A DNA stretch of 64,000 nucleotides from Clostridia bacterium (GTDB lineage: Bacteria > Bacillota > Clostridia > Oscillospirales > SIG627): NCBI GenBank assembly GCA_017467865.1, contig JAFUKG010000032.1, positions 117,681-181,680 of the forward strand, in the 5' to 3' direction. A model generated the notes under the pieces. That model did not search any database. It was not told the origin of the DNA and saw nothing but the letters and a program-made list of their open reading frames with translations. Shown one piece after another: positions 1-23,064 of the stretch. Each line of letters begins with the position of its first letter. The first letter of the stretch is position 1. Both the position numbers and the translations under genes were made by a program.

Positions 1-2094
1 ACTAAGGAAGTAAGATACCTTACTGCCGACGAAGAGGACGAATATATCGTAGCTCAGGCTAACGAGCCTCTTGACGCTGACGGAAGATTTATAAACAAGA
101 AGGTAACTGCCCGTCAGAGAGAAGAAATCGTCGTTGTTGATGCAGAAGACATAGATTACATGGACGTTTCTCCCAAAATGGTGGTTTCAGTTGCCACAGC
201 ATTTATTCCTTTCCTTGAAAACGATGACAACTCCAGAGCGCTCATGGGTTCCAACATGCAGAAGCAGGCTGTTCCCCTTATGATAAACGACTCTCCCATC
301 GTAGGTACAGGTATGGAATATAAGGCTGCAGTTGACTCAGGTGTAACAGTTCTTGCAAAGCGTGCAGGTATTGTTGACAGAGTAACAGCAGACGAAATCA
401 TAATAAAGAACGACGACGGTATCAAGGATACCTATAAGCTTATTAAGTTCAAGCGTACCAACCAGGGTACCTGTAACAACCAGCGTCCCGTTGTATCAAA
501 GGGCGAAAGAGTAGAAGAGGGCGACGTTATTGCCGACGGTCTTGCAACCAAGAACGGCGAGGTTGCTCTCGGTAAGAATGCTCTTATCGGCTTTGTTACC
601 TGGGAAGGCTATAACTACGAGGACGCCGTACTTATCAACGAGCGCCTTGTAAGAGACGATATTTACACTTCAATCCATATAGAAGAGTATTCTCACGAGG
701 CAAGAGATACCAAGCTCGGTCCCGAAGAGATTACCCGTGAAATTCCCTCTGTGGGTCCCGAGGCTCTCAAGGACCTTGACGCTGACGGTATCGTCCGCAT
801 CGGTGCCGAGGTACACTCAGGCGACATTCTTGTAGGTAAGGTTACCCCCAAGGGTGAAACAGAGCTTACCGCAGAAGAGAGACTTCTCAGAGCAATCTTC
901 GGTGAAAAGGCAAGAGAAGTAAGAGACACATCTCTCAAGCTTCCTCACGGAGAAAGCGGTATAATAATCGACGTTAAGGTATTCACCCGTGCAAATCAGG
1001 ATGAGCTTGCACCCGGTGTAAATAAGGTAGTTAAGGTTTACGTTGCACAGAAGAGAAAGATTTCTGTCGGCGACAAAATGGCGGGCCGTCACGGTAATAA
1101 GGGTGTCGTATCAAGAATACTTCCCTCCGAGGATATGCCCTTCCTTCCCGACGGTACTCCTCTTGACATCGTTCTTAACCCTCTGGGCGTTCCTTCCCGA
1201 ATGAACATCGGTCAGGTGCTCGAGGTACACCTTGGCATTGCCGCAAAGAAGCTCGGCTTCAAGATAATGACCCCCGTATTCGACGGAGCAAAGGAAGAAA
1301 ATATTGCAGAGCTCCAGAGACTTGCAGGTCTTGACCGTGACGTTGTTCCCGGTGAAAACGTAGACGGTAAGAACGTATACGAGGCAATAGAAGAAAACGG
1401 CAATAAGATACTCCGCCGTCTCACAGCCGAAGAAAGAGCGGATAAGGATTATATTGAAGCTCTTATGTCCGAGGGCAGATTTAAGGTTATCGACGGTAAG
1501 ACTGTTCTTTACGACGGACGTACAGGTATGCCCTTCGATAATCCTGTAACCGTTGGTATTATGTACTTCTTAAAGCTTCACCATCTTGTTGACGATAAGA
1601 TTCACGCCCGTTCAACAGGTCCTTACTCGCTGGTTACTCAGCAGCCTTTGGGCGGTAAGGCTCAGTTCGGCGGACAGCGTTTCGGTGAAATGGAAGTATG
1701 GGCTCTTGAGGCGTATGGCGCAGCTTATACACTTCAGGAAATACTCACAGTTAAGTCCGACGATATCGTAGGACGTGTAAATGCCTTTGAATCTATTGTC
1801 AAGGGACAGAACATTCCTACTCCCGGTGTTCCCGAATCCTTCAAGGTGCTTGTTAAGGAGCTTCAGAGCCTTGGTCTTAATCTTCAGGCACTTGATGCTG
1901 ACGGAAACGAGATAGAGCTTCACGAAAACTCCGAGGAGGAAACTGCAAAGATTCGTGCGGCAGAGGATAACATCGACCCTGATATGATAGGCGAGGAAAT
2001 CAATGATATGGATGACCCGCTCTATGACGACGAGTATCAGGACACCTACGAAACAAGTGAAGAGTCAGACGATTATTCGGATGACGAAATATAA
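1..2094 (+). CDS. rpoB: DNA-directed RNA polymerase subunit beta, 3' part only (last 697 codons, open from the window edge); arm-A copy
   Basis: Frame-1 translation from nt 1 ([19 protein letters not shown]...) equals residues 606-1302 of the full 1302-aa RpoB ORF at 18773..22681. Contains RpoB motifs [13 protein letters not shown] and [19 protein letters not shown]. Confidence 0.9.
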
Positions 2095-2114
2095 GAAGAG
2101 GAGGAGAATAGATA

Positions 2115-5100
2115 ATGGATAATAAAGAATTCGCCAAAATTAAAATTGGTCTTGCTTCTCCTGAAATGATTCGTTCGTGGTCACACGGCGAAGTCACAAA
2201 GCCGGAAACAATCAATTACAGAACTCTCAAGCCCGAGCGCGACGGTCTTTTCTGCGAAAAGATATTCGGTCCCACAAAGGACTGGGAGTGCTACTGCGGT
2301 AAATACAAGAAGGTAAGATATCTCGGTAAGGTCTGTGAAAAGTGCGGAGTTGAGATTACTACCAAGAAGGTAAGAAGAGAAAGAATGGGACACATCGAGC
2401 TTGCCGCTCCCGTTTCCCACATCTGGTACTTCAGAGCCATTCCTTCAAGAATGGGACTTCTTCTCGACATCTCTCCCAAGCAGCTTGAAAAGGTACTCTA
2501 CTTTGCTCAGTATATAGTTACTGACCCCATGACCACAACTCTCGCAAAGCAGCAGGTTCTTTCCGAACAGGAATACCGCGAGGCTATGGAAAAGTTCGAG
2601 GGTAAATTTGAGGCAGGTATGGGAGCCGAGGCTATCCGTACACTCCTTGAAAAGATTGACCTTGATAAGACCTCTGAGGAGCTTAAGAACGAGCTTCTTA
2701 CAGCGTCAGGTCAGAAGAAGGCAAGAATAGTAAAGAGACTTGAGGTTGTAGAAGCATTCAGACTTTCGGGCAACCGCCCTGAGTGGATGATACTCAGCGT
2801 ACTTCCCGTAATTCCTCCCGAAATCAGACCTATGGTTCAGCTTGACGGCGGAAGATTTGCAACTTCAGACTTAAACGATCTTTACAGAAGAGTTATAAAC
2901 CGTAACAACCGTCTTAAAAAGCTTCTTGAAATGAAGGCGCCCGAAATCATTATCAAGAATGAAAAGCGTATGCTTCAGGAAGCAGTAGACGCCCTTATTG
3001 ACAACGGAAGAAGAGGAAGACCCGTTACGGGTCCCAACAACCGTGCTCTCAAATCTCTGTCCGAAATGCTCAGAGGTAAGCAGGGACGCTTCCGTCAGAA
3101 CCTTCTCGGTAAGCGTGTTGACTATTCAGGACGTTCAGTTATCGTCGTAGGACCCGAGCTTAAGATTTATCAGTGCGGACTTCCCAAGGAAATGGCACTT
3201 GAGCTCTTCAAGCCATTCGTAATGAAGAGACTTGTTGAAACAGGCAAGTCCTCCAATATTAAGGATGCTAAGAAGAAGGTAGAGCATCAGATGACAGAGG
3301 TGTGGGATGCTCTTGAAGTGGTTATCCGTGAGCACCCCGTACTCCTTAACCGAGCTCCCACTCTTCACAGACTTTCTATTCAGGCATTCGAGCCCGTTCT
3401 CGTAGAGGGACGTGCTATCAAGCTTCACCCCCTTGTATGTTCAGCGTTCAACGCCGACTTCGACGGGGACCAGATGCCTGTTCACGTACCCCTTTCAAGC
3501 GAAGCGCAGGCGGAAGCGAGATTTCTTATGCTCTCCGCTAACAACCTTCTTAAGCCCGCTAACGGACGTGCCGTTGCCGTTCCCACACAGGATATGGTAC
3601 TCGGTTCCTACTATCTCACCTATGTGAAGGCAGGCGAAAAGGGAGAGGGCAACGTATACCGTGACTTCAATGAAGCTAATATGGCTTATGAAAACGGATA
3701 CCTCGGACTTCATGCTCCCATCAAGATAAGAGCAGAGCGTGAGTTCAAGGGACAGAAGGTTACAGGACTTGTATCTTGTACACTCGGTAGATTTATCTTC
3801 AACAGCGTAATTCCTCAGAACTTACACTTTGTTGAAAGAAATACTCTTGAGGACGCCTTCGTTCTTGAAGTTAACCACGTGGTTAAAAAGGACGACCTTG
3901 GTAATATTATTGATGCGTCCATCAAGTATTGCGGAATTGCAAGAACCTCAAAGCTGCTTGACGATATCAAGGCTATGGGCTTCAAGTATTCCACAAAAGG
4001 CGCTATCACCATTTCCGTGTCCGATATGACAGTTCCTCCCAAGAAGAAGGACATCCTTGAAAAGGCTGACGCTAAGGTTGATTATATCACTCAGCTCTAC
4101 CGCAAGGGTCTTGCAACCGACGAGGAAAGAAGAAGTGCCGTTATCAAGACTTGGGAAGTGGCAACAAACGACGTTGCCAAGGCTCTTCAGGATAACCTTG
4201 ATAACTTCAACCCCATATTCATGATGGCTGACTCAGGTGCGAGAGGTTCAATCAAGCAGATAAGACAGCTTGCAGGTATGCGTGGTCTTATGGCTACCGC
4301 CTCAGGTAGAACTTTGGAAATTCCCATCAAGGCGAACTTCCGTGAAGGTCTTACCATACTTGAATATTTCACCGCGGCAAGAGGCGCCCGTAAGGGTCTT
4401 GCCGACACCGCTCTTCGTACTGCTGACTCAGGTTATCTGACAAGACGTCTTGTTGACGTTGCACAGCAGGTAATTATCCGTCAGGTTGACTGCGGAGATA
4501 CAAGAGGTGCTTGGATTACCGAAATCAGAGAGGGCAACGAGCTTATCGAGCCTTTGAAGGTAAGAATAGTGGGCAGATATATTATAGGTGACTTTACCGA
4601 TAAGGACGGAAACGTTATTGCCCGCGACGGAGACCTTATCAGCGAAGAACAGTCTATCGCAATTGAAAATGCAGTAAACGCTATGAGCGAAGAAGAGAAA
4701 AAGGAATTCAAGGGTATTCATATCCGTTCTATTCTCAACTGCCGTTCAAAGCATGGTATATGCGCACACTGCTACGGTGCCGATATGGCATCGGGCAAGG
4801 AAGTTAACATCGGTGAAGCAGTCGGTATCCTTGCCGCTCAGTCTATCGGTGAACCCGGTACACAGCTTACCATGAGAACCTTCCACACAGGTGGTATCGC
4901 CGGCGGAGACATCACTCAGGGTCTTCCCAGAGTTGAAGAGCTCTTTGAAGCACGCCGTCCCAAGAAGACTGCAATCATTGCGGAAATCGACGGTAAGGTA
5001 ATTATCGACAACACCAAGAAGAACAGACTTATCATAAAGAACGAGCTGTCGGGTGAAGAAAGAAGCTACCCCGTAGCTATGAGTGCAAGAATTCTTGCCG

Positions 5101-5678
5101 AGGACGGCGACTACGTTGTTCACGGTCAGAAGCTTACAGAGGGAACACTCTTCCCCACAGACGTAGCAAGAATTCAGGGTATGGACGAGGTTTACAGCTA
5201 TATTATCCGCGAAGTTCAGAAGGTTTACTGTCTGCAGAGCGTTGATATCAGCGATAAACACATCGAGGTCATTGCCCGTCAGATGACAAGAAAGGCAAGA
5301 GTAGAGGACGCAGGAGATACAAACCTTCTTGCAGGCTCGCTTGTTGACGTTTCCGAAATCATCACCGAAAACGAAATCATAGAGAAGAGAGTTAAGGAGG
5401 GCGAAACGACCCTTAGAGAGGCAACCTATACTCCCGTTCTTCAGGGTATCACAAAGGCTTCACTCTCTACCGACTCCTTCCTTTCCGCAGCTTCCTTCCA
5501 GGAAACTACAAAGGTTCTTACCGAGGCTGCTATCAAGGGTAAGGTTGATCCCCTTCTCGGTCTTAAGGAGAACGTTATCATCGGTAAGCTTATCCCCGCA
5601 GGTACGGGTCTTAATATCTACCGTGATATCGAGGTTGCTCCCAATGACACAATTCCTGCTATCACAACAGCAGATTAA
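2115..5678 (+). CDS. rpoC: DNA-directed RNA polymerase subunit beta prime; arm-A copy
   Basis: 1187-aa ORF with an aggagga SD. Has the catalytic NADFDGDQM motif and N-terminal zinc-binding cysteines (CYCGKYKK...CEKCG). Starts 20 nt after rpoB. Confidence 0.95.
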
Positions 5679-5754
5679 GATTGACAATCAACCGTCAGTT
5701 TTAACAAAAGTAATTGTGCAAATTGCTGAAATTTAAAATTATTTTGCATTTTGA

Positions 5755-5783
5755 TTGACATTGAAAACTTGATAATGTAAAAT
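5755..5783 (+). promoter_or_regulatory. Sigma-70/SigA-type promoter of the rpsL-rpsG-fusA-tuf (str) operon; arm-A copy
   Basis: TTGACA (5755..5760), 17-nt spacer, TAAAAT (5778..5783). A leader of about 110 nt follows, with a 9-bp stem-loop near 5833..5855. Confidence 0.5.
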
Positions 5784-5898
5784 ATATTAGTAATTCTGCG
5801 CAATTATGTTTACAAGTTAGATTTTGCCGAAGCTCGCAGGGAGAACCCCTGCGGGTATCGGTGTGTCTATAAAAAATTAAAGAGAAGGAGGAAAAATA

Positions 5899-6321
5899 AT
5901 GCCAACATTTAACCAGCTGGTTAGACACGGACGTGAGCAGGTAGCTTACAAATCAAAGTCTCCCGCACTTCAGGTAGGTGTTAACACCCTCAAGAAGCAG
6001 ACAACAAACGTTCCGTCTCCCCAGAAGCGTGGTGTTTGCACAAAGGTTACAACCAAGACCCCTAAGAAGCCTAACTCAGCTCTTCGTAAGATTGCCAGAG
6101 TAAGACTTACCAACGGTCAGGAAGTTACTGCTTACATTCCCGGCATTGGACATAACATTCAGGAACACTCTGTTGTTATGATCAGAGGCGGAAGAGTAAA
6201 GGACCTTCCCGGTGTACGTTACCATATTATCCGTGGTACACTTGATACACAGGGCGTTGCAAACAGAAATCAGTCTCGCTCTAAGTATGGAGCAAAGAAG
6301 GCAAAGGCGGCTAAGAAGTAA
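5899..6321 (+). CDS. rpsL: 30S ribosomal protein S12; arm-A copy
   Basis: 140-aa ORF beginning [13 protein letters not shown], with the KKPNSALRK motif. SD is aaggagg. Confidence 0.97.
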
Positions 6322-6476
6322 GCTTTTGCAGATACTTGACACAGACAAAAAACAGCTTGTGCTTGAAATATAACAGCATACTTTTATATATAGATTATGA
6401 GGTTTCTTCAAGCACTTACGGGGCAGAAAACTGTTCCGAGTACCGCTGATATCATTTTATGAAGGAGGGAAGTTCA

Positions 6477-6947
6477 GTGCCAAGAAGAGGTCAAATTTCA
6501 AAAAGAGACGTTCTGCCGGATCCTATATACGGTTCCAAGCTTGTAACAAAGCTTGTTAACAATATTATGCTGGACGGCAAGAAGGGTATAGCACAGGGTA
6601 TCGTATACGATGCTTTTGCTATCGTTGAAGAAAAGCTCGGAGAGAATCCTCTCGAATCATTCCAAAAGGCTCTTGAGAACATTATGCCCACTCTCGAGGT
6701 TAAGGCTCGCAGAGTAGGTGGTTCTACCTATCAGGTGCCCATGGAAGTAAGACCTGAAAGAAAGCAGACACTCGGTCTCAGATGGCTCATCACTTATGCG
6801 AGAGCAAGAGGCGAGAGAACTATGGCTGAAAGACTTGCAGGTGAAATTATGGACGCTATCAACAACACGGGTCGCGCTGTAAAGAAGAAAGAAGACACAC
6901 ACAAGATGGCAGAAGCCAACAAGGCTTTCTCTCATTTCAAGTGGTAA
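6477..6947 (+). CDS. rpsG: 30S ribosomal protein S7; arm-A copy
   Basis: GTG at 6477 is preceded by gaaggaggg and gives the N-terminus [12 protein letters not shown] typical of S7. The ORF-track start at 6459 has no SD. The C-terminus ends ..AFSHFKW. Confidence 0.92.
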
Positions 6948-7018
6948 TTTCCGTTTTACCATTTTTAATATTTGTGAAAAAATCGGAAATTATTTAATAA
7001 AACTGAAAGGAGAAAATT

Positions 7019-9142
7019 ATGCCAAGAGATTGTTCACTTGAAAAAACAAGAAATATCGGTATTATGGCTCACATCGACGCCGGAAAGACTACCACAACAG
7101 AGCGTATTCTTTTCTATACCGGTAAAACTCATAAAATCGGTGAAACTCACGAAGGTTCTGCAACAATGGACTGGATGGAGCAGGAGCAGGAGCGTGGTAT
7201 CACTATCACATCTGCTGCAACCACATGTTACTGGGCACATTCAGATTTCCACACAGACCAAAAGAGCGTTGAGGCTAACAAGCACCGTATAAACATTATT
7301 GATACCCCCGGCCACGTTGACTTCACGGTTGAGGTTGAGCGTTCACTCAGAGTACTTGACGGCTCCGTTACAGTATTCTGTGCTAAGGGCGGTGTTGAAC
7401 CTCAGTCTGAAACCGTTTGGCGTCAGGCTGACAAATATCATGTTCCCCGTATGGCTTATGTAAATAAGATGGATATTATGGGTGCTAACTTCTACAGAGT
7501 TGTAGGAATGATGCATGACCGTCTTAAAGCTAATGCCGTTCCGATTCAGCTTCCTATCGGTGCTGAAGCAGAGTTCAAGGGTATTATCGACCTTTTCGGC
7601 ATGAAGGCTTATATTTACACTAACGACCTTGGAACAGATATCCTCGAGGAAGAAATTCCCGCAGATATGAAGGATAAGGCAGAAGAGTATCACGCAGACC
7701 TCATCGAGAAGATCGCTGAGACCGACGATGAACTCATGATGAAATATCTTGAAGGCGAAGAGCTTACTATTCCCGAGCTCAAGAAGGCACTCAGAAAGGC
7801 TACTATCGACAATAAGATAGTTCCCGTTTGCTGCGGTACCTCTTATAAGAACAAGGGTGTTCAGAAGCTTCTCGACGCAGTTATTGACTTTATGCCTTCT
7901 CCTCTTGATATCGAAAATATCAAGGGTGTTGACCAGATTACAGGTGAGGAGAGCGAGCGTCCTACCGATGACAATGCGCCTTTTGCAGCTCTTGCATTCA
8001 AGATTGCAACAGACCCCTTCGTTGGTAAGCTTTGCTTCATCCGTGTATATTCCGGTAAGATGACTGCAGGTCAGACTGTTTACAACGCTACCAAGCAGTC
8101 CAGAGAGCGTCTTGGACGTATCGTTCAGATGCACTCCAACAACAGAATCGATATTGATGAGCTTTACGCAGGTGACATTGCCGCAGTTGTTGGTGTAAAG
8201 AACACTACAACAGGTGATACACTTTGTGACGAAGACCATCCTATCATTCTCGAATCTATGGAGTTCCCTGAACCCGTTATTCGAGTTGCTATCGAGCCTA
8301 AGACTAAGGCAGGTCAGGAAAAGATGGGTATCGCTCTTCAGAAGCTTGCTGAAGAAGACCCCACATTCCGTTGCTATACAGATGAAGAAACAGGTCAGAC
8401 AATTATCGCCGGAATGGGCGAGTTGCACCTTGAAATCATCGTAGACAGACTTCTTCGTGAGTTCCACGTTGAAGCTGACGTTGGTAAGCCTCAGGTTGCA
8501 TACAAGGAAACTATCCGCAAGTCTGCGGACGTTGACCACAAGTATGCACGTCAGTCCGGTGGTAAGGGTCAGTACGGTCACGTTAAGATGATCATTGAGC
8601 CTAACGAATCGGGCAAGGGTTACGAATTCATCAACAAAGTTGTTGGCGGTAACATTCCTAAGGAATATATCCCCGCAGTAGACGCAGGTGTACAGGGTGC
8701 TATGACATCCGGTGTCATCGCAGGCTACAACGTTGTTGACGTTAAGGTAACACTTTATGACGGTTCTTATCACGAAGTTGACTCTTCTGAAATGGCGTTC
8801 AAGATTGCCGCTTCAATGGCATTCAAGGAAGGTATGAGAAAGGCTGACCCCGTTCTCACCGAGCCTATCATGAAGGTTGTCGTAGTAGTACCCGACGATT
8901 ACATGGGAGACGTTATCGGTGATATCAACTCCCGCCGTGGTCAGATTCAGGGTATGGAGCAGGTAGGACAGGGCGTTCAGGAAATCAACGCATTTGTTCC
9001 CCTTGCATCAATGTTCGGTTATGCCACAGACCTTCGTTCTAAGACACAGGGTCGTGGACAGTATACAATGGAACCCAGCCACTACACCGAAGTTCCTAAG
9101 AGCATTCAGGAAGAAATCGTTGCAGGCAAGGCTAAGGCATAA
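7019..9142 (+). CDS. fusA: Elongation factor G; arm-A copy
   Basis: 707-aa ORF with GTPase motifs [17 protein letters not shown] and NKMD. SD is aaaggag. Confidence 0.97.
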
Positions 9143-9196
9143 CAAAAAATTAAATTTAAAAAACAAAAAAACACATAAAACAGGAGGAAATTTACA

Positions 9197-10402
9197 ATGG
9201 CAAAGGCAAAATTCGAAAGAACAAAACCCCATGTTAACATTGGTACAATCGGTCACGTTGACCATGGTAAGACAACTCTTACCGCAGCAATTACAAAATA
9301 TCTTTCTCTCGGTAACGACAAGAACGAGGCTATGGCTTACGACCAGATCGACAACGCTCCCGAAGAAAGAGCACGTGGTATCACGATCAACACAAGACAC
9401 GTTGAGTACGAAACAGCTAACAGACACTATGCACACGTTGACTGTCCCGGCCACGCTGACTACGTTAAGAACATGATCACAGGTGCTGCTCAGATGGACG
9501 GCGGTATCCTTGTTGTTGCTGGTACTGACGGTCCCATGCAGCAGACTCGTGAGCACATCCTTCTTGCTCGTCAGGTTGGTGTTCCTGCTCTTGTTGTATT
9601 CATCAACAAGTGCGACATGGTTGACGACGAGGAACTTCTTGAGCTCGTTGAAATGGAAATCAGAGGACTCCTTGATGAGTACGATTTCCCCGGAGACGAT
9701 ATCCCGATTGTAAGAGGTTCTGCAAGAGAAGCTCTTATCTCTGAGTCTACAAGCGCTGATGATGCAGTTTATGCTCCTATCAAGGAACTCATGGACGCAG
9801 TTGACAGCTATATTCCTACTCCCGACAGAAAGGCTGATATGCCCTTCCTTATGCCTGTCGAGGACGTATTCTCTATCTCCGGACGTGGTACAGTTGCTAC
9901 AGGTAGAGTAGAGCGTGGTACAATCCACATGAACGAAGAAGTTGAACTCGTAGGTCTTGCTGATGAGAGCAGAAAGACTGTTGTTACAGGTATCGAAATG
10001 TTCCACAAGCTCATGGACGATGCTGAAGCAGGTGACAACGTTGGTCTTCTTCTCCGTGGTATCCAGAAGAACGAGATTGAAAGAGGACAAGTTCTTGCTA
10101 AGCCCGGCTCTATCAATCCTCACACCAAGTTCGTTGGTCAGGTTTACGTTCTTACTGAAAAGGAAGGCGGACGTCATAAGCCCTTCTTCACAAACTACAG
10201 ACCTCAGTTCTACTTCAGAACTACCGACGTTACAGGTGTTATCACTCTTCCCGAAGGCGTTGAAATGTGCAACCCCGGCGATAACGTAGATATGAACGTT
10301 GAGCTCATCACTCCTATCGCTATTGAAAAGGGTCTTCGTTTCGCTATCCGTGAGGGTGGTAGAACAGTTGGTTCCGGTGTCGTTTCCGAAATCAAGGAAT
10401 AA
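9197..10402 (+). CDS. tuf: Elongation factor Tu; arm-A copy
   Basis: 401-aa ORF beginning [28 protein letters not shown], with DCPGHADY and NKCD motifs. SD is aggagg. Confidence 0.98.
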
Positions 10403-10464
10403 TTTATAAGCGATAATAAAAAGGTTTACGCTATAGCGTAAACCTTTTTATTATCGCTTATAAA
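10403..10464. terminator. Bidirectional rho-independent terminator hairpin after tuf; also the exact centre of the 20.9-kb palindrome
   Basis: The 62-nt spacer is perfectly self-complementary. Its core is aaaaaggtttacgc ta|ta gcgtaaaccttttt (10418..10449), and the symmetry axis lies between 10433 and 10434. Confidence 0.75.
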
Positions 10465-11670
10465 TTATTCCTTGATTTCGGAAACGACACCGGAACCAAC
10501 TGTTCTACCACCCTCACGGATAGCGAAACGAAGACCCTTTTCAATAGCGATAGGAGTGATGAGCTCAACGTTCATATCTACGTTATCGCCGGGGTTGCAC
10601 ATTTCAACGCCTTCGGGAAGAGTGATAACACCTGTAACGTCGGTAGTTCTGAAGTAGAACTGAGGTCTGTAGTTTGTGAAGAAGGGCTTATGACGTCCGC
10701 CTTCCTTTTCAGTAAGAACGTAAACCTGACCAACGAACTTGGTGTGAGGATTGATAGAGCCGGGCTTAGCAAGAACTTGTCCTCTTTCAATCTCGTTCTT
10801 CTGGATACCACGGAGAAGAAGACCAACGTTGTCACCTGCTTCAGCATCGTCCATGAGCTTGTGGAACATTTCGATACCTGTAACAACAGTCTTTCTGCTC
10901 TCATCAGCAAGACCTACGAGTTCAACTTCTTCGTTCATGTGGATTGTACCACGCTCTACTCTACCTGTAGCAACTGTACCACGTCCGGAGATAGAGAATA
11001 CGTCCTCGACAGGCATAAGGAAGGGCATATCAGCCTTTCTGTCGGGAGTAGGAATATAGCTGTCAACTGCGTCCATGAGTTCCTTGATAGGAGCATAAAC
11101 TGCATCATCAGCGCTTGTAGACTCAGAGATAAGAGCTTCTCTTGCAGAACCTCTTACAATCGGGATATCGTCTCCGGGGAAATCGTACTCATCAAGGAGT
11201 CCTCTGATTTCCATTTCAACGAGCTCAAGAAGTTCCTCGTCGTCAACCATGTCGCACTTGTTGATGAATACAACAAGAGCAGGAACACCAACCTGACGAG
11301 CAAGAAGGATGTGCTCACGAGTCTGCTGCATGGGACCGTCAGTACCAGCAACAACAAGGATACCGCCGTCCATCTGAGCAGCACCTGTGATCATGTTCTT
11401 AACGTAGTCAGCGTGGCCGGGACAGTCAACGTGTGCATAGTGTCTGTTAGCTGTTTCGTACTCAACGTGTCTTGTGTTGATCGTGATACCACGTGCTCTT
11501 TCTTCGGGAGCGTTGTCGATCTGGTCGTAAGCCATAGCCTCGTTCTTGTCGTTACCGAGAGAAAGATATTTTGTAATTGCTGCGGTAAGAGTTGTCTTAC
11601 CATGGTCAACGTGACCGATTGTACCAATGTTAACATGGGGTTTTGTTCTTTCGAATTTTGCCTTTGCCAT
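10465..11670 (-). CDS. tuf: Elongation factor Tu; arm-B copy, contiguous with unique DNA and taken as native
   Basis: Exact reverse-complement copy of 9197..10402 (identical 401-aa product). Confidence 0.98.
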
Positions 11671-11724
11671 TGTAAATTTCCTCCTGTTTTATGTGTTTTT
11701 TTGTTTTTTAAATTTAATTTTTTG

Positions 11725-13848
11725 TTATGCCTTAGCCTTGCCTGCAACGATTTCTTCCTGAATGCTCTTAGGAACTTCGGTGTAGTGGCTGGGTTCCATT
11801 GTATACTGTCCACGACCCTGTGTCTTAGAACGAAGGTCTGTGGCATAACCGAACATTGATGCAAGGGGAACAAATGCGTTGATTTCCTGAACGCCCTGTC
11901 CTACCTGCTCCATACCCTGAATCTGACCACGGCGGGAGTTGATATCACCGATAACGTCTCCCATGTAATCGTCGGGTACTACTACGACAACCTTCATGAT
12001 AGGCTCGGTGAGAACGGGGTCAGCCTTTCTCATACCTTCCTTGAATGCCATTGAAGCGGCAATCTTGAACGCCATTTCAGAAGAGTCAACTTCGTGATAA
12101 GAACCGTCATAAAGTGTTACCTTAACGTCAACAACGTTGTAGCCTGCGATGACACCGGATGTCATAGCACCCTGTACACCTGCGTCTACTGCGGGGATAT
12201 ATTCCTTAGGAATGTTACCGCCAACAACTTTGTTGATGAATTCGTAACCCTTGCCCGATTCGTTAGGCTCAATGATCATCTTAACGTGACCGTACTGACC
12301 CTTACCACCGGACTGACGTGCATACTTGTGGTCAACGTCCGCAGACTTGCGGATAGTTTCCTTGTATGCAACCTGAGGCTTACCAACGTCAGCTTCAACG
12401 TGGAACTCACGAAGAAGTCTGTCTACGATGATTTCAAGGTGCAACTCGCCCATTCCGGCGATAATTGTCTGACCTGTTTCTTCATCTGTATAGCAACGGA
12501 ATGTGGGGTCTTCTTCAGCAAGCTTCTGAAGAGCGATACCCATCTTTTCCTGACCTGCCTTAGTCTTAGGCTCGATAGCAACTCGAATAACGGGTTCAGG
12601 GAACTCCATAGATTCGAGAATGATAGGATGGTCTTCGTCACAAAGTGTATCACCTGTTGTAGTGTTCTTTACACCAACAACTGCGGCAATGTCACCTGCG
12701 TAAAGCTCATCAATATCGATTCTGTTGTTGGAGTGCATCTGAACGATACGTCCAAGACGCTCTCTGGACTGCTTGGTAGCGTTGTAAACAGTCTGACCTG
12801 CAGTCATCTTACCGGAATATACACGGATGAAGCAAAGCTTACCAACGAAGGGGTCTGTTGCAATCTTGAATGCAAGAGCTGCAAAAGGCGCATTGTCATC
12901 GGTAGGACGCTCGCTCTCCTCACCTGTAATCTGGTCAACACCCTTGATATTTTCGATATCAAGAGGAGAAGGCATAAAGTCAATAACTGCGTCGAGAAGC
13001 TTCTGAACACCCTTGTTCTTATAAGAGGTACCGCAGCAAACGGGAACTATCTTATTGTCGATAGTAGCCTTTCTGAGTGCCTTCTTGAGCTCGGGAATAG
13101 TAAGCTCTTCGCCTTCAAGATATTTCATCATGAGTTCATCGTCGGTCTCAGCGATCTTCTCGATGAGGTCTGCGTGATACTCTTCTGCCTTATCCTTCAT
13201 ATCTGCGGGAATTTCTTCCTCGAGGATATCTGTTCCAAGGTCGTTAGTGTAAATATAAGCCTTCATGCCGAAAAGGTCGATAATACCCTTGAACTCTGCT
13301 TCAGCACCGATAGGAAGCTGAATCGGAACGGCATTAGCTTTAAGACGGTCATGCATCATTCCTACAACTCTGTAGAAGTTAGCACCCATAATATCCATCT
13401 TATTTACATAAGCCATACGGGGAACATGATATTTGTCAGCCTGACGCCAAACGGTTTCAGACTGAGGTTCAACACCGCCCTTAGCACAGAATACTGTAAC
13501 GGAGCCGTCAAGTACTCTGAGTGAACGCTCAACCTCAACCGTGAAGTCAACGTGGCCGGGGGTATCAATAATGTTTATACGGTGCTTGTTAGCCTCAACG
13601 CTCTTTTGGTCTGTGTGGAAATCTGAATGTGCCCAGTAACATGTGGTTGCAGCAGATGTGATAGTGATACCACGCTCCTGCTCCTGCTCCATCCAGTCCA
13701 TTGTTGCAGAACCTTCGTGAGTTTCACCGATTTTATGAGTTTTACCGGTATAGAAAAGAATACGCTCTGTTGTGGTAGTCTTTCCGGCGTCGATGTGAGC
13801 CATAATACCGATATTTCTTGTTTTTTCAAGTGAACAATCTCTTGGCAT
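11725..13848 (-). CDS. fusA: Elongation factor G; arm-B copy
   Basis: Exact reverse-complement copy of 7019..9142 (identical 707-aa product). Confidence 0.97.
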
Positions 13849-13919
13849 AATTTTCTCCTTTCAGTTTTATTAAATAATTTCCGATTTTTTCACAAATATT
13901 AAAAATGGTAAAACGGAAA

Positions 13920-14390
13920 TTACCACTTGAAATGAGAGAAAGCCTTGTTGGCTTCTGCCATCTTGTGTGTGTCTTCTTTCTTCTTTACAGCGCGACCCGT
14001 GTTGTTGATAGCGTCCATAATTTCACCTGCAAGTCTTTCAGCCATAGTTCTCTCGCCTCTTGCTCTCGCATAAGTGATGAGCCATCTGAGACCGAGTGTC
14101 TGCTTTCTTTCAGGTCTTACTTCCATGGGCACCTGATAGGTAGAACCACCTACTCTGCGAGCCTTAACCTCGAGAGTGGGCATAATGTTCTCAAGAGCCT
14201 TTTGGAATGATTCGAGAGGATTCTCTCCGAGCTTTTCTTCAACGATAGCAAAAGCATCGTATACGATACCCTGTGCTATACCCTTCTTGCCGTCCAGCAT
14301 AATATTGTTAACAAGCTTTGTTACAAGCTTGGAACCGTATATAGGATCCGGCAGAACGTCTCTTTTTGAAATTTGACCTCTTCTTGGCAC
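13920..14390 (-). CDS. rpsG: 30S ribosomal protein S7; arm-B copy
   Basis: Mirror of 6477..6947, with the same GTG start and SD reasoning. Confidence 0.92.
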
Positions 14391-14545
14391 TGAACTTCCC
14401 TCCTTCATAAAATGATATCAGCGGTACTCGGAACAGTTTTCTGCCCCGTAAGTGCTTGAAGAAACCTCATAATCTATATATAAAAGTATGCTGTTATATT
14501 TCAAGCACAAGCTGTTTTTTGTCTGTGTCAAGTATCTGCAAAAGC

Positions 14546-14968
14546 TTACTTCTTAGCCGCCTTTGCCTTCTTTGCTCCATACTTAGAGCGAGACTGATTT
14601 CTGTTTGCAACGCCCTGTGTATCAAGTGTACCACGGATAATATGGTAACGTACACCGGGAAGGTCCTTTACTCTTCCGCCTCTGATCATAACAACAGAGT
14701 GTTCCTGAATGTTATGTCCAATGCCGGGAATGTAAGCAGTAACTTCCTGACCGTTGGTAAGTCTTACTCTGGCAATCTTACGAAGAGCTGAGTTAGGCTT
14801 CTTAGGGGTCTTGGTTGTAACCTTTGTGCAAACACCACGCTTCTGGGGAGACGGAACGTTTGTTGTCTGCTTCTTGAGGGTGTTAACACCTACCTGAAGT
14901 GCGGGAGACTTTGATTTGTAAGCTACCTGCTCACGTCCGTGTCTAACCAGCTGGTTAAATGTTGGCAT
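14546..14968 (-). CDS. rpsL: 30S ribosomal protein S12; arm-B copy
   Basis: Mirror of 5899..6321 (identical 140-aa product). Confidence 0.97.
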
Positions 14969-15083
14969 TATTTTTCCTCCTTCTCTTTAATTTTTTATAG
15001 ACACACCGATACCCGCAGGGGTTCTCCCTGCGAGCTTCGGCAAAATCTAACTTGTAAACATAATTGCGCAGAATTACTAATAT

Positions 15084-15112
15084 ATTTTACATTATCAAGT
15101 TTTCAATGTCAA
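15084..15112 (-). promoter_or_regulatory. str-operon promoter; arm-B copy
   Basis: Mirror of 5755..5783. On the + strand tgtcaa is at 15107..15112 and atttta at 15084..15089. Confidence 0.5.
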
Positions 15113-15188
15113 TCAAAATGCAAAATAATTTTAAATTTCAGCAATTTGCACAATTACTTTTGTTAAAACTGACGGTTGATTGTCAATC

Positions 15189-18100
15189 TTAATCTGCTGT
15201 TGTGATAGCAGGAATTGTGTCATTGGGAGCAACCTCGATATCACGGTAGATATTAAGACCCGTACCTGCGGGGATAAGCTTACCGATGATAACGTTCTCC
15301 TTAAGACCGAGAAGGGGATCAACCTTACCCTTGATAGCAGCCTCGGTAAGAACCTTTGTAGTTTCCTGGAAGGAAGCTGCGGAAAGGAAGGAGTCGGTAG
15401 AGAGTGAAGCCTTTGTGATACCCTGAAGAACGGGAGTATAGGTTGCCTCTCTAAGGGTCGTTTCGCCCTCCTTAACTCTCTTCTCTATGATTTCGTTTTC
15501 GGTGATGATTTCGGAAACGTCAACAAGCGAGCCTGCAAGAAGGTTTGTATCTCCTGCGTCCTCTACTCTTGCCTTTCTTGTCATCTGACGGGCAATGACC
15601 TCGATGTGTTTATCGCTGATATCAACGCTCTGCAGACAGTAAACCTTCTGAACTTCGCGGATAATATAGCTGTAAACCTCGTCCATACCCTGAATTCTTG
15701 CTACGTCTGTGGGGAAGAGTGTTCCCTCTGTAAGCTTCTGACCGTGAACAACGTAGTCGCCGTCCTCGGCAAGAATTCTTGCACTCATAGCTACGGGGTA
15801 GCTTCTTTCTTCACCCGACAGCTCGTTCTTTATGATAAGTCTGTTCTTCTTGGTGTTGTCGATAATTACCTTACCGTCGATTTCCGCAATGATTGCAGTC
15901 TTCTTGGGACGGCGTGCTTCAAAGAGCTCTTCAACTCTGGGAAGACCCTGAGTGATGTCTCCGCCGGCGATACCACCTGTGTGGAAGGTTCTCATGGTAA
16001 GCTGTGTACCGGGTTCACCGATAGACTGAGCGGCAAGGATACCGACTGCTTCACCGATGTTAACTTCCTTGCCCGATGCCATATCGGCACCGTAGCAGTG
16101 TGCGCATATACCATGCTTTGAACGGCAGTTGAGAATAGAACGGATATGAATACCCTTGAATTCCTTTTTCTCTTCTTCGCTCATAGCGTTTACTGCATTT
16201 TCAATTGCGATAGACTGTTCTTCGCTGATAAGGTCTCCGTCGCGGGCAATAACGTTTCCGTCCTTATCGGTAAAGTCACCTATAATATATCTGCCCACTA
16301 TTCTTACCTTCAAAGGCTCGATAAGCTCGTTGCCCTCTCTGATTTCGGTAATCCAAGCACCTCTTGTATCTCCGCAGTCAACCTGACGGATAATTACCTG
16401 CTGTGCAACGTCAACAAGACGTCTTGTCAGATAACCTGAGTCAGCAGTACGAAGAGCGGTGTCGGCAAGACCCTTACGGGCGCCTCTTGCCGCGGTGAAA
16501 TATTCAAGTATGGTAAGACCTTCACGGAAGTTCGCCTTGATGGGAATTTCCAAAGTTCTACCTGAGGCGGTAGCCATAAGACCACGCATACCTGCAAGCT
16601 GTCTTATCTGCTTGATTGAACCTCTCGCACCTGAGTCAGCCATCATGAATATGGGGTTGAAGTTATCAAGGTTATCCTGAAGAGCCTTGGCAACGTCGTT
16701 TGTTGCCACTTCCCAAGTCTTGATAACGGCACTTCTTCTTTCCTCGTCGGTTGCAAGACCCTTGCGGTAGAGCTGAGTGATATAATCAACCTTAGCGTCA
16801 GCCTTTTCAAGGATGTCCTTCTTCTTGGGAGGAACTGTCATATCGGACACGGAAATGGTGATAGCGCCTTTTGTGGAATACTTGAAGCCCATAGCCTTGA
16901 TATCGTCAAGCAGCTTTGAGGTTCTTGCAATTCCGCAATACTTGATGGACGCATCAATAATATTACCAAGGTCGTCCTTTTTAACCACGTGGTTAACTTC
17001 AAGAACGAAGGCGTCCTCAAGAGTATTTCTTTCAACAAAGTGTAAGTTCTGAGGAATTACGCTGTTGAAGATAAATCTACCGAGTGTACAAGATACAAGT
17101 CCTGTAACCTTCTGTCCCTTGAACTCACGCTCTGCTCTTATCTTGATGGGAGCATGAAGTCCGAGGTATCCGTTTTCATAAGCCATATTAGCTTCATTGA
17201 AGTCACGGTATACGTTGCCCTCTCCCTTTTCGCCTGCCTTCACATAGGTGAGATAGTAGGAACCGAGTACCATATCCTGTGTGGGAACGGCAACGGCACG
17301 TCCGTTAGCGGGCTTAAGAAGGTTGTTAGCGGAGAGCATAAGAAATCTCGCTTCCGCCTGCGCTTCGCTTGAAAGGGGTACGTGAACAGGCATCTGGTCC
17401 CCGTCGAAGTCGGCGTTGAACGCTGAACATACAAGGGGGTGAAGCTTGATAGCACGTCCCTCTACGAGAACGGGCTCGAATGCCTGAATAGAAAGTCTGT
17501 GAAGAGTGGGAGCTCGGTTAAGGAGTACGGGGTGCTCACGGATAACCACTTCAAGAGCATCCCACACCTCTGTCATCTGATGCTCTACCTTCTTCTTAGC
17601 ATCCTTAATATTGGAGGACTTGCCTGTTTCAACAAGTCTCTTCATTACGAATGGCTTGAAGAGCTCAAGTGCCATTTCCTTGGGAAGTCCGCACTGATAA
17701 ATCTTAAGCTCGGGTCCTACGACGATAACTGAACGTCCTGAATAGTCAACACGCTTACCGAGAAGGTTCTGACGGAAGCGTCCCTGCTTACCTCTGAGCA
17801 TTTCGGACAGAGATTTGAGAGCACGGTTGTTGGGACCCGTAACGGGTCTTCCTCTTCTTCCGTTGTCAATAAGGGCGTCTACTGCTTCCTGAAGCATACG
17901 CTTTTCATTCTTGATAATGATTTCGGGCGCCTTCATTTCAAGAAGCTTTTTAAGACGGTTGTTACGGTTTATAACTCTTCTGTAAAGATCGTTTAAGTCT
18001 GAAGTTGCAAATCTTCCGCCGTCAAGCTGAACCATAGGTCTGATTTCGGGAGGAATTACGGGAAGTACGCTGAGTATCATCCACTCAGGGCGGTTGCCCG

Positions 18101-18752
18101 AAAGTCTGAATGCTTCTACAACCTCAAGTCTCTTTACTATTCTTGCCTTCTTCTGACCTGACGCTGTAAGAAGCTCGTTCTTAAGCTCCTCAGAGGTCTT
18201 ATCAAGGTCAATCTTTTCAAGGAGTGTACGGATAGCCTCGGCTCCCATACCTGCCTCAAATTTACCCTCGAACTTTTCCATAGCCTCGCGGTATTCCTGT
18301 TCGGAAAGAACCTGCTGCTTTGCGAGAGTTGTGGTCATGGGGTCAGTAACTATATACTGAGCAAAGTAGAGTACCTTTTCAAGCTGCTTGGGAGAGATGT
18401 CGAGAAGAAGTCCCATTCTTGAAGGAATGGCTCTGAAGTACCAGATGTGGGAAACGGGAGCGGCAAGCTCGATGTGTCCCATTCTTTCTCTTCTTACCTT
18501 CTTGGTAGTAATCTCAACTCCGCACTTTTCACAGACCTTACCGAGATATCTTACCTTCTTGTATTTACCGCAGTAGCACTCCCAGTCCTTTGTGGGACCG
18601 AATATCTTTTCGCAGAAAAGACCGTCGCGCTCGGGCTTGAGAGTTCTGTAATTGATTGTTTCCGGCTTTGTGACTTCGCCGTGTGACCACGAACGAATCA
18701 TTTCAGGAGAAGCAAGACCAATTTTAATTTTGGCGAATTCTTTATTATCCAT
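15189..18752 (-). CDS. rpoC: DNA-directed RNA polymerase subunit beta prime; arm-B copy
   Basis: Mirror of 2115..5678 (identical 1187-aa product). Confidence 0.95.
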
Positions 18753-18772
18753 TATCTATTCTCCTCCTCTTC

Positions 18773-21700
18773 TTATATTTCGTCATCCGAATAATCGTCT
18801 GACTCTTCACTTGTTTCGTAGGTGTCCTGATACTCGTCGTCATAGAGCGGGTCATCCATATCATTGATTTCCTCGCCTATCATATCAGGGTCGATGTTAT
18901 CCTCTGCCGCACGAATCTTTGCAGTTTCCTCCTCGGAGTTTTCGTGAAGCTCTATCTCGTTTCCGTCAGCATCAAGTGCCTGAAGATTAAGACCAAGGCT
19001 CTGAAGCTCCTTAACAAGCACCTTGAAGGATTCGGGAACACCGGGAGTAGGAATGTTCTGTCCCTTGACAATAGATTCAAAGGCATTTACACGTCCTACG
19101 ATATCGTCGGACTTAACTGTGAGTATTTCCTGAAGTGTATAAGCTGCGCCATACGCCTCAAGAGCCCATACTTCCATTTCACCGAAACGCTGTCCGCCGA
19201 ACTGAGCCTTACCGCCCAAAGGCTGCTGAGTAACCAGCGAGTAAGGACCTGTTGAACGGGCGTGAATCTTATCGTCAACAAGATGGTGAAGCTTTAAGAA
19301 GTACATAATACCAACGGTTACAGGATTATCGAAGGGCATACCTGTACGTCCGTCGTAAAGAACAGTCTTACCGTCGATAACCTTAAATCTGCCCTCGGAC
19401 ATAAGAGCTTCAATATAATCCTTATCCGCTCTTTCTTCGGCTGTGAGACGGCGGAGTATCTTATTGCCGTTTTCTTCTATTGCCTCGTATACGTTCTTAC
19501 CGTCTACGTTTTCACCGGGAACAACGTCACGGTCAAGACCTGCAAGTCTCTGGAGCTCTGCAATATTTTCTTCCTTTGCTCCGTCGAATACGGGGGTCAT
19601 TATCTTGAAGCCGAGCTTCTTTGCGGCAATGCCAAGGTGTACCTCGAGCACCTGACCGATGTTCATTCGGGAAGGAACGCCCAGAGGGTTAAGAACGATG
19701 TCAAGAGGAGTACCGTCGGGAAGGAAGGGCATATCCTCGGAGGGAAGTATTCTTGATACGACACCCTTATTACCGTGACGGCCCGCCATTTTGTCGCCGA
19801 CAGAAATCTTTCTCTTCTGTGCAACGTAAACCTTAACTACCTTATTTACACCGGGTGCAAGCTCATCCTGATTTGCACGGGTGAATACCTTAACGTCGAT
19901 TATTATACCGCTTTCTCCGTGAGGAAGCTTGAGAGATGTGTCTCTTACTTCTCTTGCCTTTTCACCGAAGATTGCTCTGAGAAGTCTCTCTTCTGCGGTA
20001 AGCTCTGTTTCACCCTTGGGGGTAACCTTACCTACAAGAATGTCGCCTGAGTGTACCTCGGCACCGATGCGGACGATACCGTCAGCGTCAAGGTCCTTGA
20101 GAGCCTCGGGACCCACAGAGGGAATTTCACGGGTAATCTCTTCGGGACCGAGCTTGGTATCTCTTGCCTCGTGAGAATACTCTTCTATATGGATTGAAGT
20201 GTAAATATCGTCTCTTACAAGGCGCTCGTTGATAAGTACGGCGTCCTCGTAGTTATAGCCTTCCCAGGTAACAAAGCCGATAAGAGCATTCTTACCGAGA
20301 GCAACCTCGCCGTTCTTGGTTGCAAGACCGTCGGCAATAACGTCGCCCTCTTCTACTCTTTCGCCCTTTGATACAACGGGACGCTGGTTGTTACAGGTAC
20401 CCTGGTTGGTACGCTTGAACTTAATAAGCTTATAGGTATCCTTGATACCGTCGTCGTTCTTTATTATGATTTCGTCTGCTGTTACTCTGTCAACAATACC
20501 TGCACGCTTTGCAAGAACTGTTACACCTGAGTCAACTGCAGCCTTATATTCCATACCTGTACCTACGATGGGAGAGTCGTTTATCATAAGGGGAACAGCC
20601 TGCTTCTGCATGTTGGAACCCATGAGCGCTCTGGAGTTGTCATCGTTTTCAAGGAAAGGAATAAATGCTGTGGCAACTGAAACCACCATTTTGGGAGAAA
20701 CGTCCATGTAATCTATGTCTTCTGCATCAACAACGACGATTTCTTCTCTCTGACGGGCAGTTACCTTCTTGTTTATAAATCTTCCGTCAGCGTCAAGAGG
20801 CTCGTTAGCCTGAGCTACGATATATTCGTCCTCTTCGTCGGCAGTAAGGTATCTTACTTCCTTAGTTACAATACCCGTTTCCTTGTCTACACGGCGGTAG
20901 GGTGCCTCGATAAATCCGAAGGGGCTTATGCGGGCAAAGGTTGACAGGTAAGAGATAAGACCGATGTTGGGACCTTCGGGGGTCTCGATAGGACACATTC
21001 TTCCGTACTGAGTATAGTGTACGTCTCGAACGTCGAAGGATGCTCTGTCTCTCGACAAACCGCCGGGACCGAGAGCTGAAAGCCTTCTCTTGTGAGTAAG
21101 CTCGCCAAGGGGGTTACCCTGATCCATAAACTGAGAAAGAGGAGATGAACCGAAGAAGTCCTTGATAGCAGACATAATGGGACGGATGTTAATGAGAGCC
21201 TGAGGAGTTACGGAGTCAATATCCTGAATTGTCATTCTCTCCTTAACAATCTTATCCATTCTGAGGAAGCCTATTCTCATCTGGTTCTGAAGAAGCTCAC
21301 CGACAGAACGAAGTCTTCTGTTACCAAGATGGTCTATATCATCCTTGGTGCCTATTTCGTGGTAAAGGCATACAAGATAGTTGATGGAAGAAAGAATATC
21401 CGCTCTTGTAATGCTCTTGGGAATAAGCTCGTCGCGACGGCGAAGCATTGCTTCCTTAATAGCCTCTTCACCCTCGCACTCGTCAAGAATTTCAAGGAGT
21501 GTTGCACGGTCAACCATCTCGGTGATACCGATGGATGCAACCTCAAAGGGAAGTACCTTGTCGGGGTGTACCATTCCGTTGGAGAATATCTTAATCTCTC
21601 CGTCTGTACCCTCAACGTATACCTCTGTAATACCCGCGTATTCCATAGCTTCACCCTTTGCACGGTCAAGCCTTTCACCCTTTTCAAAGATTATCTCTCC

Positions 21701-22681: not shown

Positions 22682-22864
22682 TAAAACAAATCACACTCCA
22701 TTTCTTTTTAATCCAGCGAATTTTTTCGCAAAATGGTGCTTTATACAATGCGAAAACGCCTGTTTTATGAAAAATTTTCATCAGGTTCAGAAAAAGTTTT
22801 CAAAAAATTTACTTTTACATTTTCTGTAAAAAGGGCATACTTCGCAATTCTAATGCAGTATAGT

Positions 22865-22893
22865 ATCATATCACAAGTTTTGCACGTTGTCAA
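22865..22893 (-). promoter_or_regulatory. Candidate rpoBC promoter with an extended -10
   Basis: On the - strand: TTGACA (22888..22893), 17-nt spacer, TG-n-TATGAT (-10 at 22865..22870). This gives a leader of about 180 nt before the rpoB ATG. Confidence 0.5.
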
Positions 22894-22894
22894 G

Positions 22895-22928
22895 AGAAAA
22901 GAGGAAATATTTTTCAAAATATTTCCTC
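22895..22928 (-). terminator. Terminator-like hairpin immediately upstream of the rpoB promoter
   Basis: 12-bp perfect stem gaggaaatattt/aaatatttcctc with a 4-nt loop, followed on the - strand by ttttct. Confidence 0.5.
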
Positions 22929-22943
22929 TAACGAAGAATTAAT

Positions 22944-23064
22944 GAAAATTTCGCTTTAGCGAAATTAAAATTGATTGTAAATTTTGCAAAGCAAAATTGT
23001 CCGCAATTCATCATTCATCATTCTGCATTTTAAGAATGCATTCTGCATTCTTAATTCTGCATTC
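22944..23064. repeat. Mosaic of short hairpins and attctgcatt repeats; member 1 of a dispersed intergenic repeat family
   Basis: Hairpins aatttcgc-ttta-gcgaaatt (22947..22966) and aattttgc-aaa-gcaaaatt (22980..22998). The module aaattgtccgcaattcatcattc follows. attctgcatt occurs three times (23020, 23040, 23054). Related copies are at 40527..40564, 40962..41012 and 50199..50243. Confidence 0.7.

Follow-up and report, generated by a model that had tools for sequence, protein, structure and literature searches.

The perfect palindrome around the tuf gene in the 64,000-nt stretch analysed here (the window) is very probably an in-silico fold-back misassembly at the tuf terminator and not a real feature of the genome. 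The source of the window was a 256,226-bp GenBank MAG contig (Clostridia bacterium) carrying two tuf copies, MBQ7897740 and MBQ7897741. U denotes the sequence upstream of the central palindrome, P the 32-nt palindrome itself and D the true downstream DNA. The real order is rpoB-rpoC-rpsL-rpsG-fusA-tuf, followed by P and then by phosphodiesterase-YjjG-NAPRTase-FTHFS, while the deposited sequence reads U + P + revcomp(U).

The palindrome in the window and its pivot

A comparison of the full arms showed 0 mismatches between 1..10433 and the reverse complement of 10434..20866, with no spacer between them. The coordinates of all paired ORFs of the two arms added up to 20867, as the preliminary description had stated, and its gene content (rpoB', rpoC, rpsL, rpsG, fusA and tuf) was also confirmed. 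A perfect symmetry of 10,433 bp cannot have arisen by chance. The visible part of arm A (1..10433, + strand) runs from the 3' part of rpoB to the left half of the terminator and contained the rpoB 3' part (1..2094), rpoC (2115..5678), rpsL (5899..6321), rpsG (6459..6947), fusA (7019..9142) and tuf (9197..10402), all on the + strand. Arm B, as bounded in the preliminary description (10434..20866, - strand, accessions MBQ7897741-746), contained tuf (10465..11670), fusA (11725..13848), rpsG (13920..14408), rpsL (14546..14968), rpoC (15189..18752) and the 3' part of rpoB, the remainder of which extends to 22681, all on the - strand. The exact match of the arms reaches base 1 of the window, so that its limit is set by the window and not by the contig.

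The pivot of the fold-back was a perfect 32-nt palindrome, AAAAAGGTTTACGCTATAGCGTAAACCTTTTT, at 10418..10449, with the architecture AAAAAGGTTTACGC-TATA-GCGTAAACCTTTTT. This natural element is the intrinsic bidirectional terminator hairpin of tuf. It lies 15 nt past the tuf stop codon and has a stem of 14 bp, in which the A/T runs are counted, around a centre of 4 nt, with a U-run on either strand, and its RNA fold in the native context gave -27.2 kcal/mol (z = -5.8). The 32-mer was identical in the conspecific contig L089/L096, and 1-nt stem variants were present in L087 and L088. In L082 and L083, two relatives with 86-88% identity, the hairpin was kept with compensatory stem changes and was followed by other genes; the window stem GGTTTACGC/GCGTAAACC corresponded to GGTTTACAC/GTGTAAGCC in L083 and to GGATTATGC/GCATAATCC in L082. 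A stable stem-loop, a U-run, a position near the stop codon and a covarying stem, as expected of an intrinsic terminator, were all found. Compared with an ordinary rho-independent bidirectional terminator after tuf, the only oddity is the perfect 32-nt palindrome, and therefore both strands are identical for k up to 32. The true breakpoint lies anywhere inside 10418..10449, and a finer placement is impossible. A simple consensus terminator scanner did not call the hairpin at 10418..10449, possibly because base pairing extends into the A and T runs, and an Rfam scan of the whole window returned nothing at the gathering threshold.

Native sequence downstream of tuf

Three conspecific contigs from three other samples were used for comparison: L087 (99.84% identity), L088 (98.5%) and L089 (96.9%). 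Past the terminator, all three continued into the phosphodiesterase, YjjG, NAPRTase and FTHFS genes, with no duplication. When the window was set side by side with these contigs, it left the conspecific sequence at the first base after the 32-mer. The first non-native bases (10450..10464, + strand) read ATTATCGCTTATAAA in the window, which is the upstream reverse complement, and TGCTTGCTAAGTAAT in the conspecifics, where this sequence leads on to the phosphodiesterase gene. The Logan contig L099 (k=31) opened with P[2..32], that is, with 31 of the 32 palindrome bases, so that at this k the contig breaks exactly at the palindrome. The phosphodiesterase-side sequence joined to tuf in the native order was TGCTTGCTAAG...

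The native downstream neighbours of tuf were linked to neither tuf copy of the deposited contig. The accessions MBQ7897251-254 were exact matches to the L087 protein sequences of the four genes that natively follow tuf, with one accession each, and they shared their accession series and organism name with the proteins of the mirrored contig. From this accession proximity and name, the four genes are probably in the same MAG, on a separate contig.

The downstream evidence also bears on the idea that the sequence was read around the tip of a linear replicon whose telomere is a covalently closed hairpin, as in Borrelia or N15, an explanation to which we give almost no credence. Read-through of a hairpin end does yield a spacerless palindrome at a contig end, as in Borrelia telomere assembly work, but in conspecific and related genomes the sequence runs on beyond this position and housekeeping genes follow, and exact copies of the downstream genes occur in the contig's own accession series. 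The 32-mer is, moreover, an ordinary terminator conserved by covariation, and the join of tuf to phosphodiesterase, or its downstream half, is already present in L099 and L087-L089 from related samples. The scanned window proteins included no telomere resolvase.

A long spacerless palindrome was present in 0 of 102 related loci (1.54 Mb), the exact 44-nt pattern formed by the tuf 3' end and the terminator half had no match in GTDB representative genomes, and the window EF-Tu and P0002, used as exact-protein queries, had no match among the indexed contigs. A scan of genome contigs with EF-Tu gave relatives of at most 84% identity, too distant for the junction question. P0001/L081, which had the top EF-Tu bit score, was rejected as a relative, because it came from a distant organism in which an ORF of 522 aa had been mis-called; its sole value was to indicate that tuf is commonly followed by a hairpin terminator.

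The mirror in the source contig

All proteins tested, as far as SecF (61-62 kb), had two accessions each, placed symmetrically about MBQ7897740/741. The accession pairs had a constant sum (MBQ7897xxx: 740+741, 739+742, 737+744, 736+745, 735+746 and 734+747, and further out 731+750, 728+753, 726+755, 722+759 and 698+783). Two mirrored accessions each were obtained for the full-length rpoB product (1302 aa), a sugar-phosphate isomerase (23092-23937), a histidine kinase (25570-26790), a CotH protein (28293-30233), an ORF (30799-32763), mfd (35906-39430) and SecF (61125-62297, MBQ7897698/783). The consecutive accession numbering agreed with the gene order; mfd, for example, is 741+18 = 759.

The arms are at least 51.9 kb each, because the accession pairs are mirrored out to SecF. 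The 2 x 10.43-kb palindrome of the preliminary description was therefore exact and spacerless as claimed but too small, since it was cut only by the window. Its placement at a contig end did not hold either: the mirrored accessions MBQ7897735-740 carry arm A leftwards past the window edge, and base 1 of the window is not a contig end. The continuation of arm B (20867..64000, - strand) is single-copy within the window and mirrored outside it in the source contig; the region, taken earlier to be unique DNA, is duplicated to the left of the window and is therefore not unique. It contained the remainder of rpoB, two sugar-phosphate isomerases, a two-component system, CotH, mfd, an ABC transporter, tmk, a tagA-like gene, coaE, the prfA region and SecDF, among others, and was colinear and single-copy in contigs of other samples (L087 and L100-L102).

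The length of the source contig is an even number, 256,226 = 2 x 128,113. In L087, an independent contig of 133,116 bp, the terminator centre lay 113,560 + 14,504 + 31 = 128,095 bp from the start, which is only 18 bp off 128,113 and suggests that both assemblies stop near one upstream point. The whole contig is probably a mirror of 2 x 128,113 bp with its pivot at mid-contig; the mirrored pairs cover the inner 51.9 kb of each arm, and the outer 76 kb would be mirrored likewise. By the accession pairs, the mirror side showed no unique flank over a distance of at least 52 kb.

It is very improbable that the strain really carries a giant inverted duplication that arose when replication or repair folded back at the terminator hairpin, with rpoBC, the str operon and tuf among at least 40 doubled genes. 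If true, it would span at least 100 kb, would include dozens of housekeeping genes and could be, for instance, a short-lived intermediate of amplification or a broken chromosome that had folded back at its end in a fraction of the population. Palindromic duplications do arise in vivo from short inverted repeats, among them the tandem inversion duplications of Salmonella and E. coli and the palindromic amplicons of eukaryotes, and the present contig resembles these in its fold-back at a short inverted repeat and its reverse-complement arms. Real inversion duplications, however, have unique flanks on both sides, quickly acquire asymmetry by junction deletion and keep normal linkage to the downstream DNA, none of which was seen here. 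With arms adding up to at least 104 kb and a loop of at most 4 nt, a perfect palindrome would also be expected to be cleaved by SbcCD or to block replication. The arms showed zero divergence, no unique mirror-side flank was seen to at least 52 kb, the length of 256,226 bp fits a mirror of the whole contig, and the duplication was absent from three conspecific samples. The native downstream genes were still present, apparently in the same MAG, whereas a broken-end fold-back would lose this linkage.

The conclusion of the preliminary description that the palindrome is an artefact and not biology was strongly supported by the native palindrome at the pivot and by the conspecific contigs that pass the terminator into unrelated genes, which occur once and apparently elsewhere in the same MAG. 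Among the mechanisms it had named, an assembler artefact fits best. A long-read fold-back at a contig end, through a missed SMRTbell adapter, a nanopore strand switch or an MDA chimera, was also named there and is hardly credible. Missed-adapter and strand-switched long reads do give spacerless perfect palindromes, but the break left by a missed adapter or a strand switch would lie at a fragment end placed at random and would not be expected at the one native 32-nt palindrome after tuf, and arms of at least 52 kb, probably 128 kb, exceed typical reads. In addition, 0 mismatches in 10.4 kb would be unusual for raw long reads, and the sister assemblies are short-read k141 contigs.

Proposed assembly route and consequences

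A toy doubled de Bruijn graph was built from the native sequence. The unitigs ended at P for k<=33 and passed through it for k>=39, and when D was left unsampled, the unitig at k<=33 spelled U + P + revcomp(U). Fold-back in the toy graph occurred only at small k and only with the downstream branch missing, and in the tested graphs with k<=33 the k-mer overlap does not exceed the length of the natural palindrome at the pivot. A second natural 32-nt perfect palindrome (48694-48725) was correctly assembled through, and therefore a 32-nt palindrome alone is insufficient for fold-back; some additional trigger presumably acted at tuf.

The proposed route for the in-silico misassembly follows from these properties of the graph. 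Where k-1 <= 32, the k-mers inside P would be alike on both strands, so that the path from tuf would have two exits, one into D and one retracing its own reverse complement. At small k, the exit into D was probably lost or pruned, possibly because strains differed in the hairpin, because coverage dropped there or because the graph was tangled around the conserved tuf, and a multi-k assembler would have kept the small-k junction through to the final contig. The assembler was probably MEGAHIT; the related assemblies consist of short-read MEGAHIT-style contigs (k141 names). The ruminant study of Xie et al. 2021 was assembled with MEGAHIT 1.1.1 / IDBA-UD, which would apply if the MAG came from those data, the link being the near-identical contigs from samples of that study and only these.

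An in-vitro snap-back chimera, in which strands ending in or near the 32-nt palindrome fold back and are extended during library preparation or amplification, is unlikely. Snap-back priming occurs at strong hairpins, the pivot is one (-27.2 kcal/mol as RNA), and such priming would explain how junction k-mers could occur at a large final k even if nothing had been carried over from small k. If it had taken place, real U + P + revcomp(U) molecules and genuine junction reads would exist, and the palindrome would still be an artefact, of a wet-lab kind. Short inserts, however, support the junction only, and the mirroring over at least 52 kb would still have been made by the assembler. The graph explanation works without chimeric reads, and the other 32-nt palindrome, at 48694-48725, was unaffected.

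The in-silico misassembly has partial precedents. MEGAHIT and SPAdes emit palindromic unitigs whole, and imperfect coverage leads to misassembled unitigs (Rahman and Medvedev 2022, Genome Res 32:1746, PMC9528984). Palindromic contigs that were "mirrored exactly" were removed as artefacts from single-cell assemblies (bioRxiv 10.1101/2023.06.06.543983). As for an explicit account of MEGAHIT fold-back contigs, the literature yielded only this general theory paper and this one single-cell-assembly note. As in de Bruijn-graph palindromic contigs, the fold-back here turns on a short palindrome of the genome that equals or exceeds the k-mer overlap in length, and the artefact requires an inverted self-loop in the graph together with a lost competing branch. 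Unlike the reported palindromic contigs, the present one is far larger (at least 104 kb, probably 256 kb), belongs to a GenBank MAG and has core marker genes doubled. The published theory (PMC9528984) treats true palindromes and coverage-gap misassemblies separately, whereas the present case combines both.

The contig provides a concrete example of a 32-nt terminator as a fold-back pivot. About 128 kb of a public MAG is apparently phantom sequence, with phantom second copies of the universal single-copy markers rpoB, rpoC, rpsL, rpsG, fusA, tuf and secDF. Such copies raise genome size, gene counts and marker-based contamination estimates, and they are open to misreading as gene duplication or as an extraordinary palindrome. 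The fold-back also severs the real linkage of tuf to phosphodiesterase. A possible screen would look for contigs with exact reverse-complement halves, or for identical proteins with mirrored consecutive accessions. The finding matters for data hygiene and not for the biology of the organism.

Mirror symmetry, extent and gene content

Direct comparison of window positions 1..10433 (arm A, forward strand) with the reverse complement of 10434..20866 (arm B) showed 0 mismatches and no spacer, as the preliminary description had claimed, with the centre of symmetry at ...AAAAAGGTTTACGCTA|TAGCGTAAACCTTTTT.... The ORF tables of both arms mirrored each other, with paired coordinates summing to 20867, and the duplicated genes were rpoB (of which arm A has only the 3' part within the window), rpoC, rpsL, rpsG, fusA, and tuf. 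The size of 2 x 10.43 kb given in that description did not hold: it reflects the window cut and not the sequence, since the exact match persisted as far as the first base of the window.

The window EF-Tu was identical to a GenBank protein of the Clostridia bacterium MAG located on a 256,226-bp contig, where it holds two consecutive accessions, MBQ7897740.1 and MBQ7897741.1, for two head-to-head tuf copies. Exact-sequence look-up of 10 further window proteins yielded two accessions each on this contig (10/10), symmetric about 740/741 (last three digits of MBQ7897xxx): fusA (739/742), rpsL (737/744), rpoC (736/745), full-length rpoB (735/746), sugar-phosphate isomerase (23092-23937; 734/747), histidine kinase (25570-26790; 731/750), CotH (28293-30233; 728/753), an ORF at 30799-32763 (726/755), mfd (35906-39430; 722/759), and SecF (61125-62297; 698/783). 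The accession numbers tracked the window gene order, with mfd being the 18th gene past tuf (741 + 18 = 759). Arm A therefore has a complete rpoB and at least 42 more genes to the left of the window, so that window position 1 is not the contig end that had been supposed, and 20867..64000, previously taken as unique DNA, is also duplicated out to SecF, giving arms of at least 51.9 kb. The contig has an even number of base pairs (2 x 128,113), and L087, an independent conspecific contig of 133,116 bp, has the centre of the same terminator 128,095 bp from its start. Upstream, the deposited contig and L087 appear to end at nearly the same position, and the simplest reading of the deposited contig is a 128-kb arm joined to its own mirror image.

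The remaining window genes were ordinary housekeeping and regulatory genes, namely a two-component system, a CotH-family protein, mfd, a sugar ABC transporter, tmk, a TagA/WecG-type glycosyltransferase, U32 peptidase, M18 aminopeptidase, an SLT-domain transglycosylase, coaE, Sua5, prfA, and SecDF. No tRNA genes and no Rfam matches were found in the window. A 36-nt direct repeat occurred in three copies (41040-41075, 41110-41145, and 41248-41283; two at 94% identity, the third weaker at 67%) within an ORF-poor stretch (~40.65-41.37 kb) upstream of a large lipoprotein-like gene (41375-43816).

Comparison with conspecific and related contigs

Conspecific contigs, all from other samples, were located through an identical S12 protein, and L087, L088, and L089 demonstrated 99.84% (over 14.5 kb), 98.5%, and 96.9% nucleotide identity to the window, respectively. 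All three matched the window through the tuf terminator and then read TGCTTGCTAAGTAATTG..., followed by genes for a phosphodiesterase, a YjjG-type nucleotidase, nicotinate phosphoribosyltransferase, and formate-tetrahydrofolate ligase. Divergence of the window from these contigs starts at 10450, immediately past the 32-nt terminator, and from there on the window repeats the tuf side as its reverse complement. The four native post-tuf genes are present in GenBank (MBQ7897251.1-254.1) with protein sequences exactly matching L087, under the same organism name, with one accession each and about 490 numbers below the tuf copies. This fits a real downstream DNA kept as a single copy on another contig of the same MAG, the membership being read from the accession block. 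No long mirror structure comparable to that of the window was found among 102 related loci (1.54 Mb).

A real palindromic inverted duplication of at least 100 kb is very improbable, as the arms show zero divergence, the mirror side has no unique flank out to at least 52 kb, 256,226 bp fits a whole-contig mirror, the structure is absent from three conspecific samples, the native neighbours of tuf persist unlinked, and bacteria are known not to maintain long perfect palindromes stably. A hairpin telomere was excluded, as conspecifics and relatives read through the site.

In the window organism and its conspecifics, rpoBC lacked the usual rplKAJL ahead of it and was preceded instead by two sugar-phosphate isomerase/AP_endonuc_2 (xylose-isomerase-like TIM barrel) genes (22682-24737; L087 283-1877). 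Four contigs from four JGI samples (L083-L086), carrying the same 97%-identical EF-Tu, all ended 170-260 bp past tuf, which suggests that assemblies of this lineage repeatedly break in the region 3' of the tuf terminator.

The terminator and a probable assembly route

A bidirectional intrinsic terminator forms the centre of the structure. It is of the ordinary kind except that its sequence is a perfect 32-nt palindrome, P (AAAAAGGTTTACGCTATAGCGTAAACCTTTTT; 10418..10449), also present in L089/L096. RNA folding of the native sequence gave -27.2 kcal/mol (z = -5.8). Relatives of 86-88% nucleotide identity (L082, an NCBI MAG, and the JGI contigs L083-L086) had a stem-loop followed by a T-run at the same site past the tuf stop, with stems differing by compensatory changes (window GGTTTACGC/GCGTAAACC, L083 GGTTTACAC/GTGTAAGCC, L082 GGATTATGC/GCATAATCC), and ran into unrelated DNA 3' of the hairpin. 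L087 and L088 carried P with 1-nt variants, A for C in the 3' stem (L087 14524-14543) and T for A in the 5' A-run (L088, around 12296-12330), which cut the perfect-palindrome half-lengths to 9 and 13 nt, respectively.

As P is the same on both strands, a tuf path in a de Bruijn graph with overlaps of 32 nt or less would enter the stem with an inverted self-loop, from which it may exit into the native downstream DNA (D) or back along the reverse complement of the upstream sequence (U). A doubled de Bruijn graph was built from native sequence, 3 kb each side of P. At full coverage, P stopped the tuf-side unitigs at k = 21-33 but not at k >= 39, where they continued across it. With D unsampled, the unitig at k = 21-33 was exactly U+P+revcomp(U), the window structure, and at k = 39 it simply stopped. 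An independent real-data illustration is the Logan contig L099 (SRR12529362_25122), which carries the native post-tuf genes and whose bases 1-31 are P[2..32], so that the k = 31 graph broke cleanly at the palindromic 31-mer itself.

The MEGAHIT default k list begins 21, 29, and the contigs of each k feed the next round. By this route a fold-back junction formed at small k would survive to k = 141. Near-identical contigs derived from samples of the ruminant study of Xie et al. 2021, in which MEGAHIT 1.1.1 and IDBA-UD were the assemblers. Palindromic unitigs arise at inverted loops of this kind, MEGAHIT and SPAdes emit them whole and not split, and imperfect coverage leads to misassembled unitigs that persist into contigs (Rahman and Medvedev, PMC9528984). 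Candidate causes for loss of the D branch are strain heterogeneity in the hairpin (L087/L088 are one base off the window in stem or A-run, and such variants could destabilise the downstream branch in a mixed-strain graph), a coverage dip at the strong hairpin, and a graph entangled at tuf, a highly conserved gene. Another natural perfect 32-nt palindrome (AAAAATCCTTGAAGAATTCTTCAAGGATTTTT; 48694-48725), which resembles a bidirectional terminator, is intergenic between an ABC permease gene and tmk, and assembly passed across it without error. At small k, fold-back therefore requires a palindrome of this kind, but the palindrome alone does not suffice.

Chimeric molecules formed by snap-back during library preparation could have given rise to genuine junction reads, in which case the structure would still be an artefact. 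The artefact reading of the preliminary description stood, but its proposed sources, a long read without adapter or an MDA chimera, account neither for a break placed at the sole 32-nt palindrome past tuf nor for an arm length of at least 52 kb. The large structure is almost certainly an assembly artefact, without biological meaning. Palindromic or mirrored contigs of graph assemblers are a known class, to which it belongs, and only its size and the universal marker genes that it duplicates in a public MAG make it notable.
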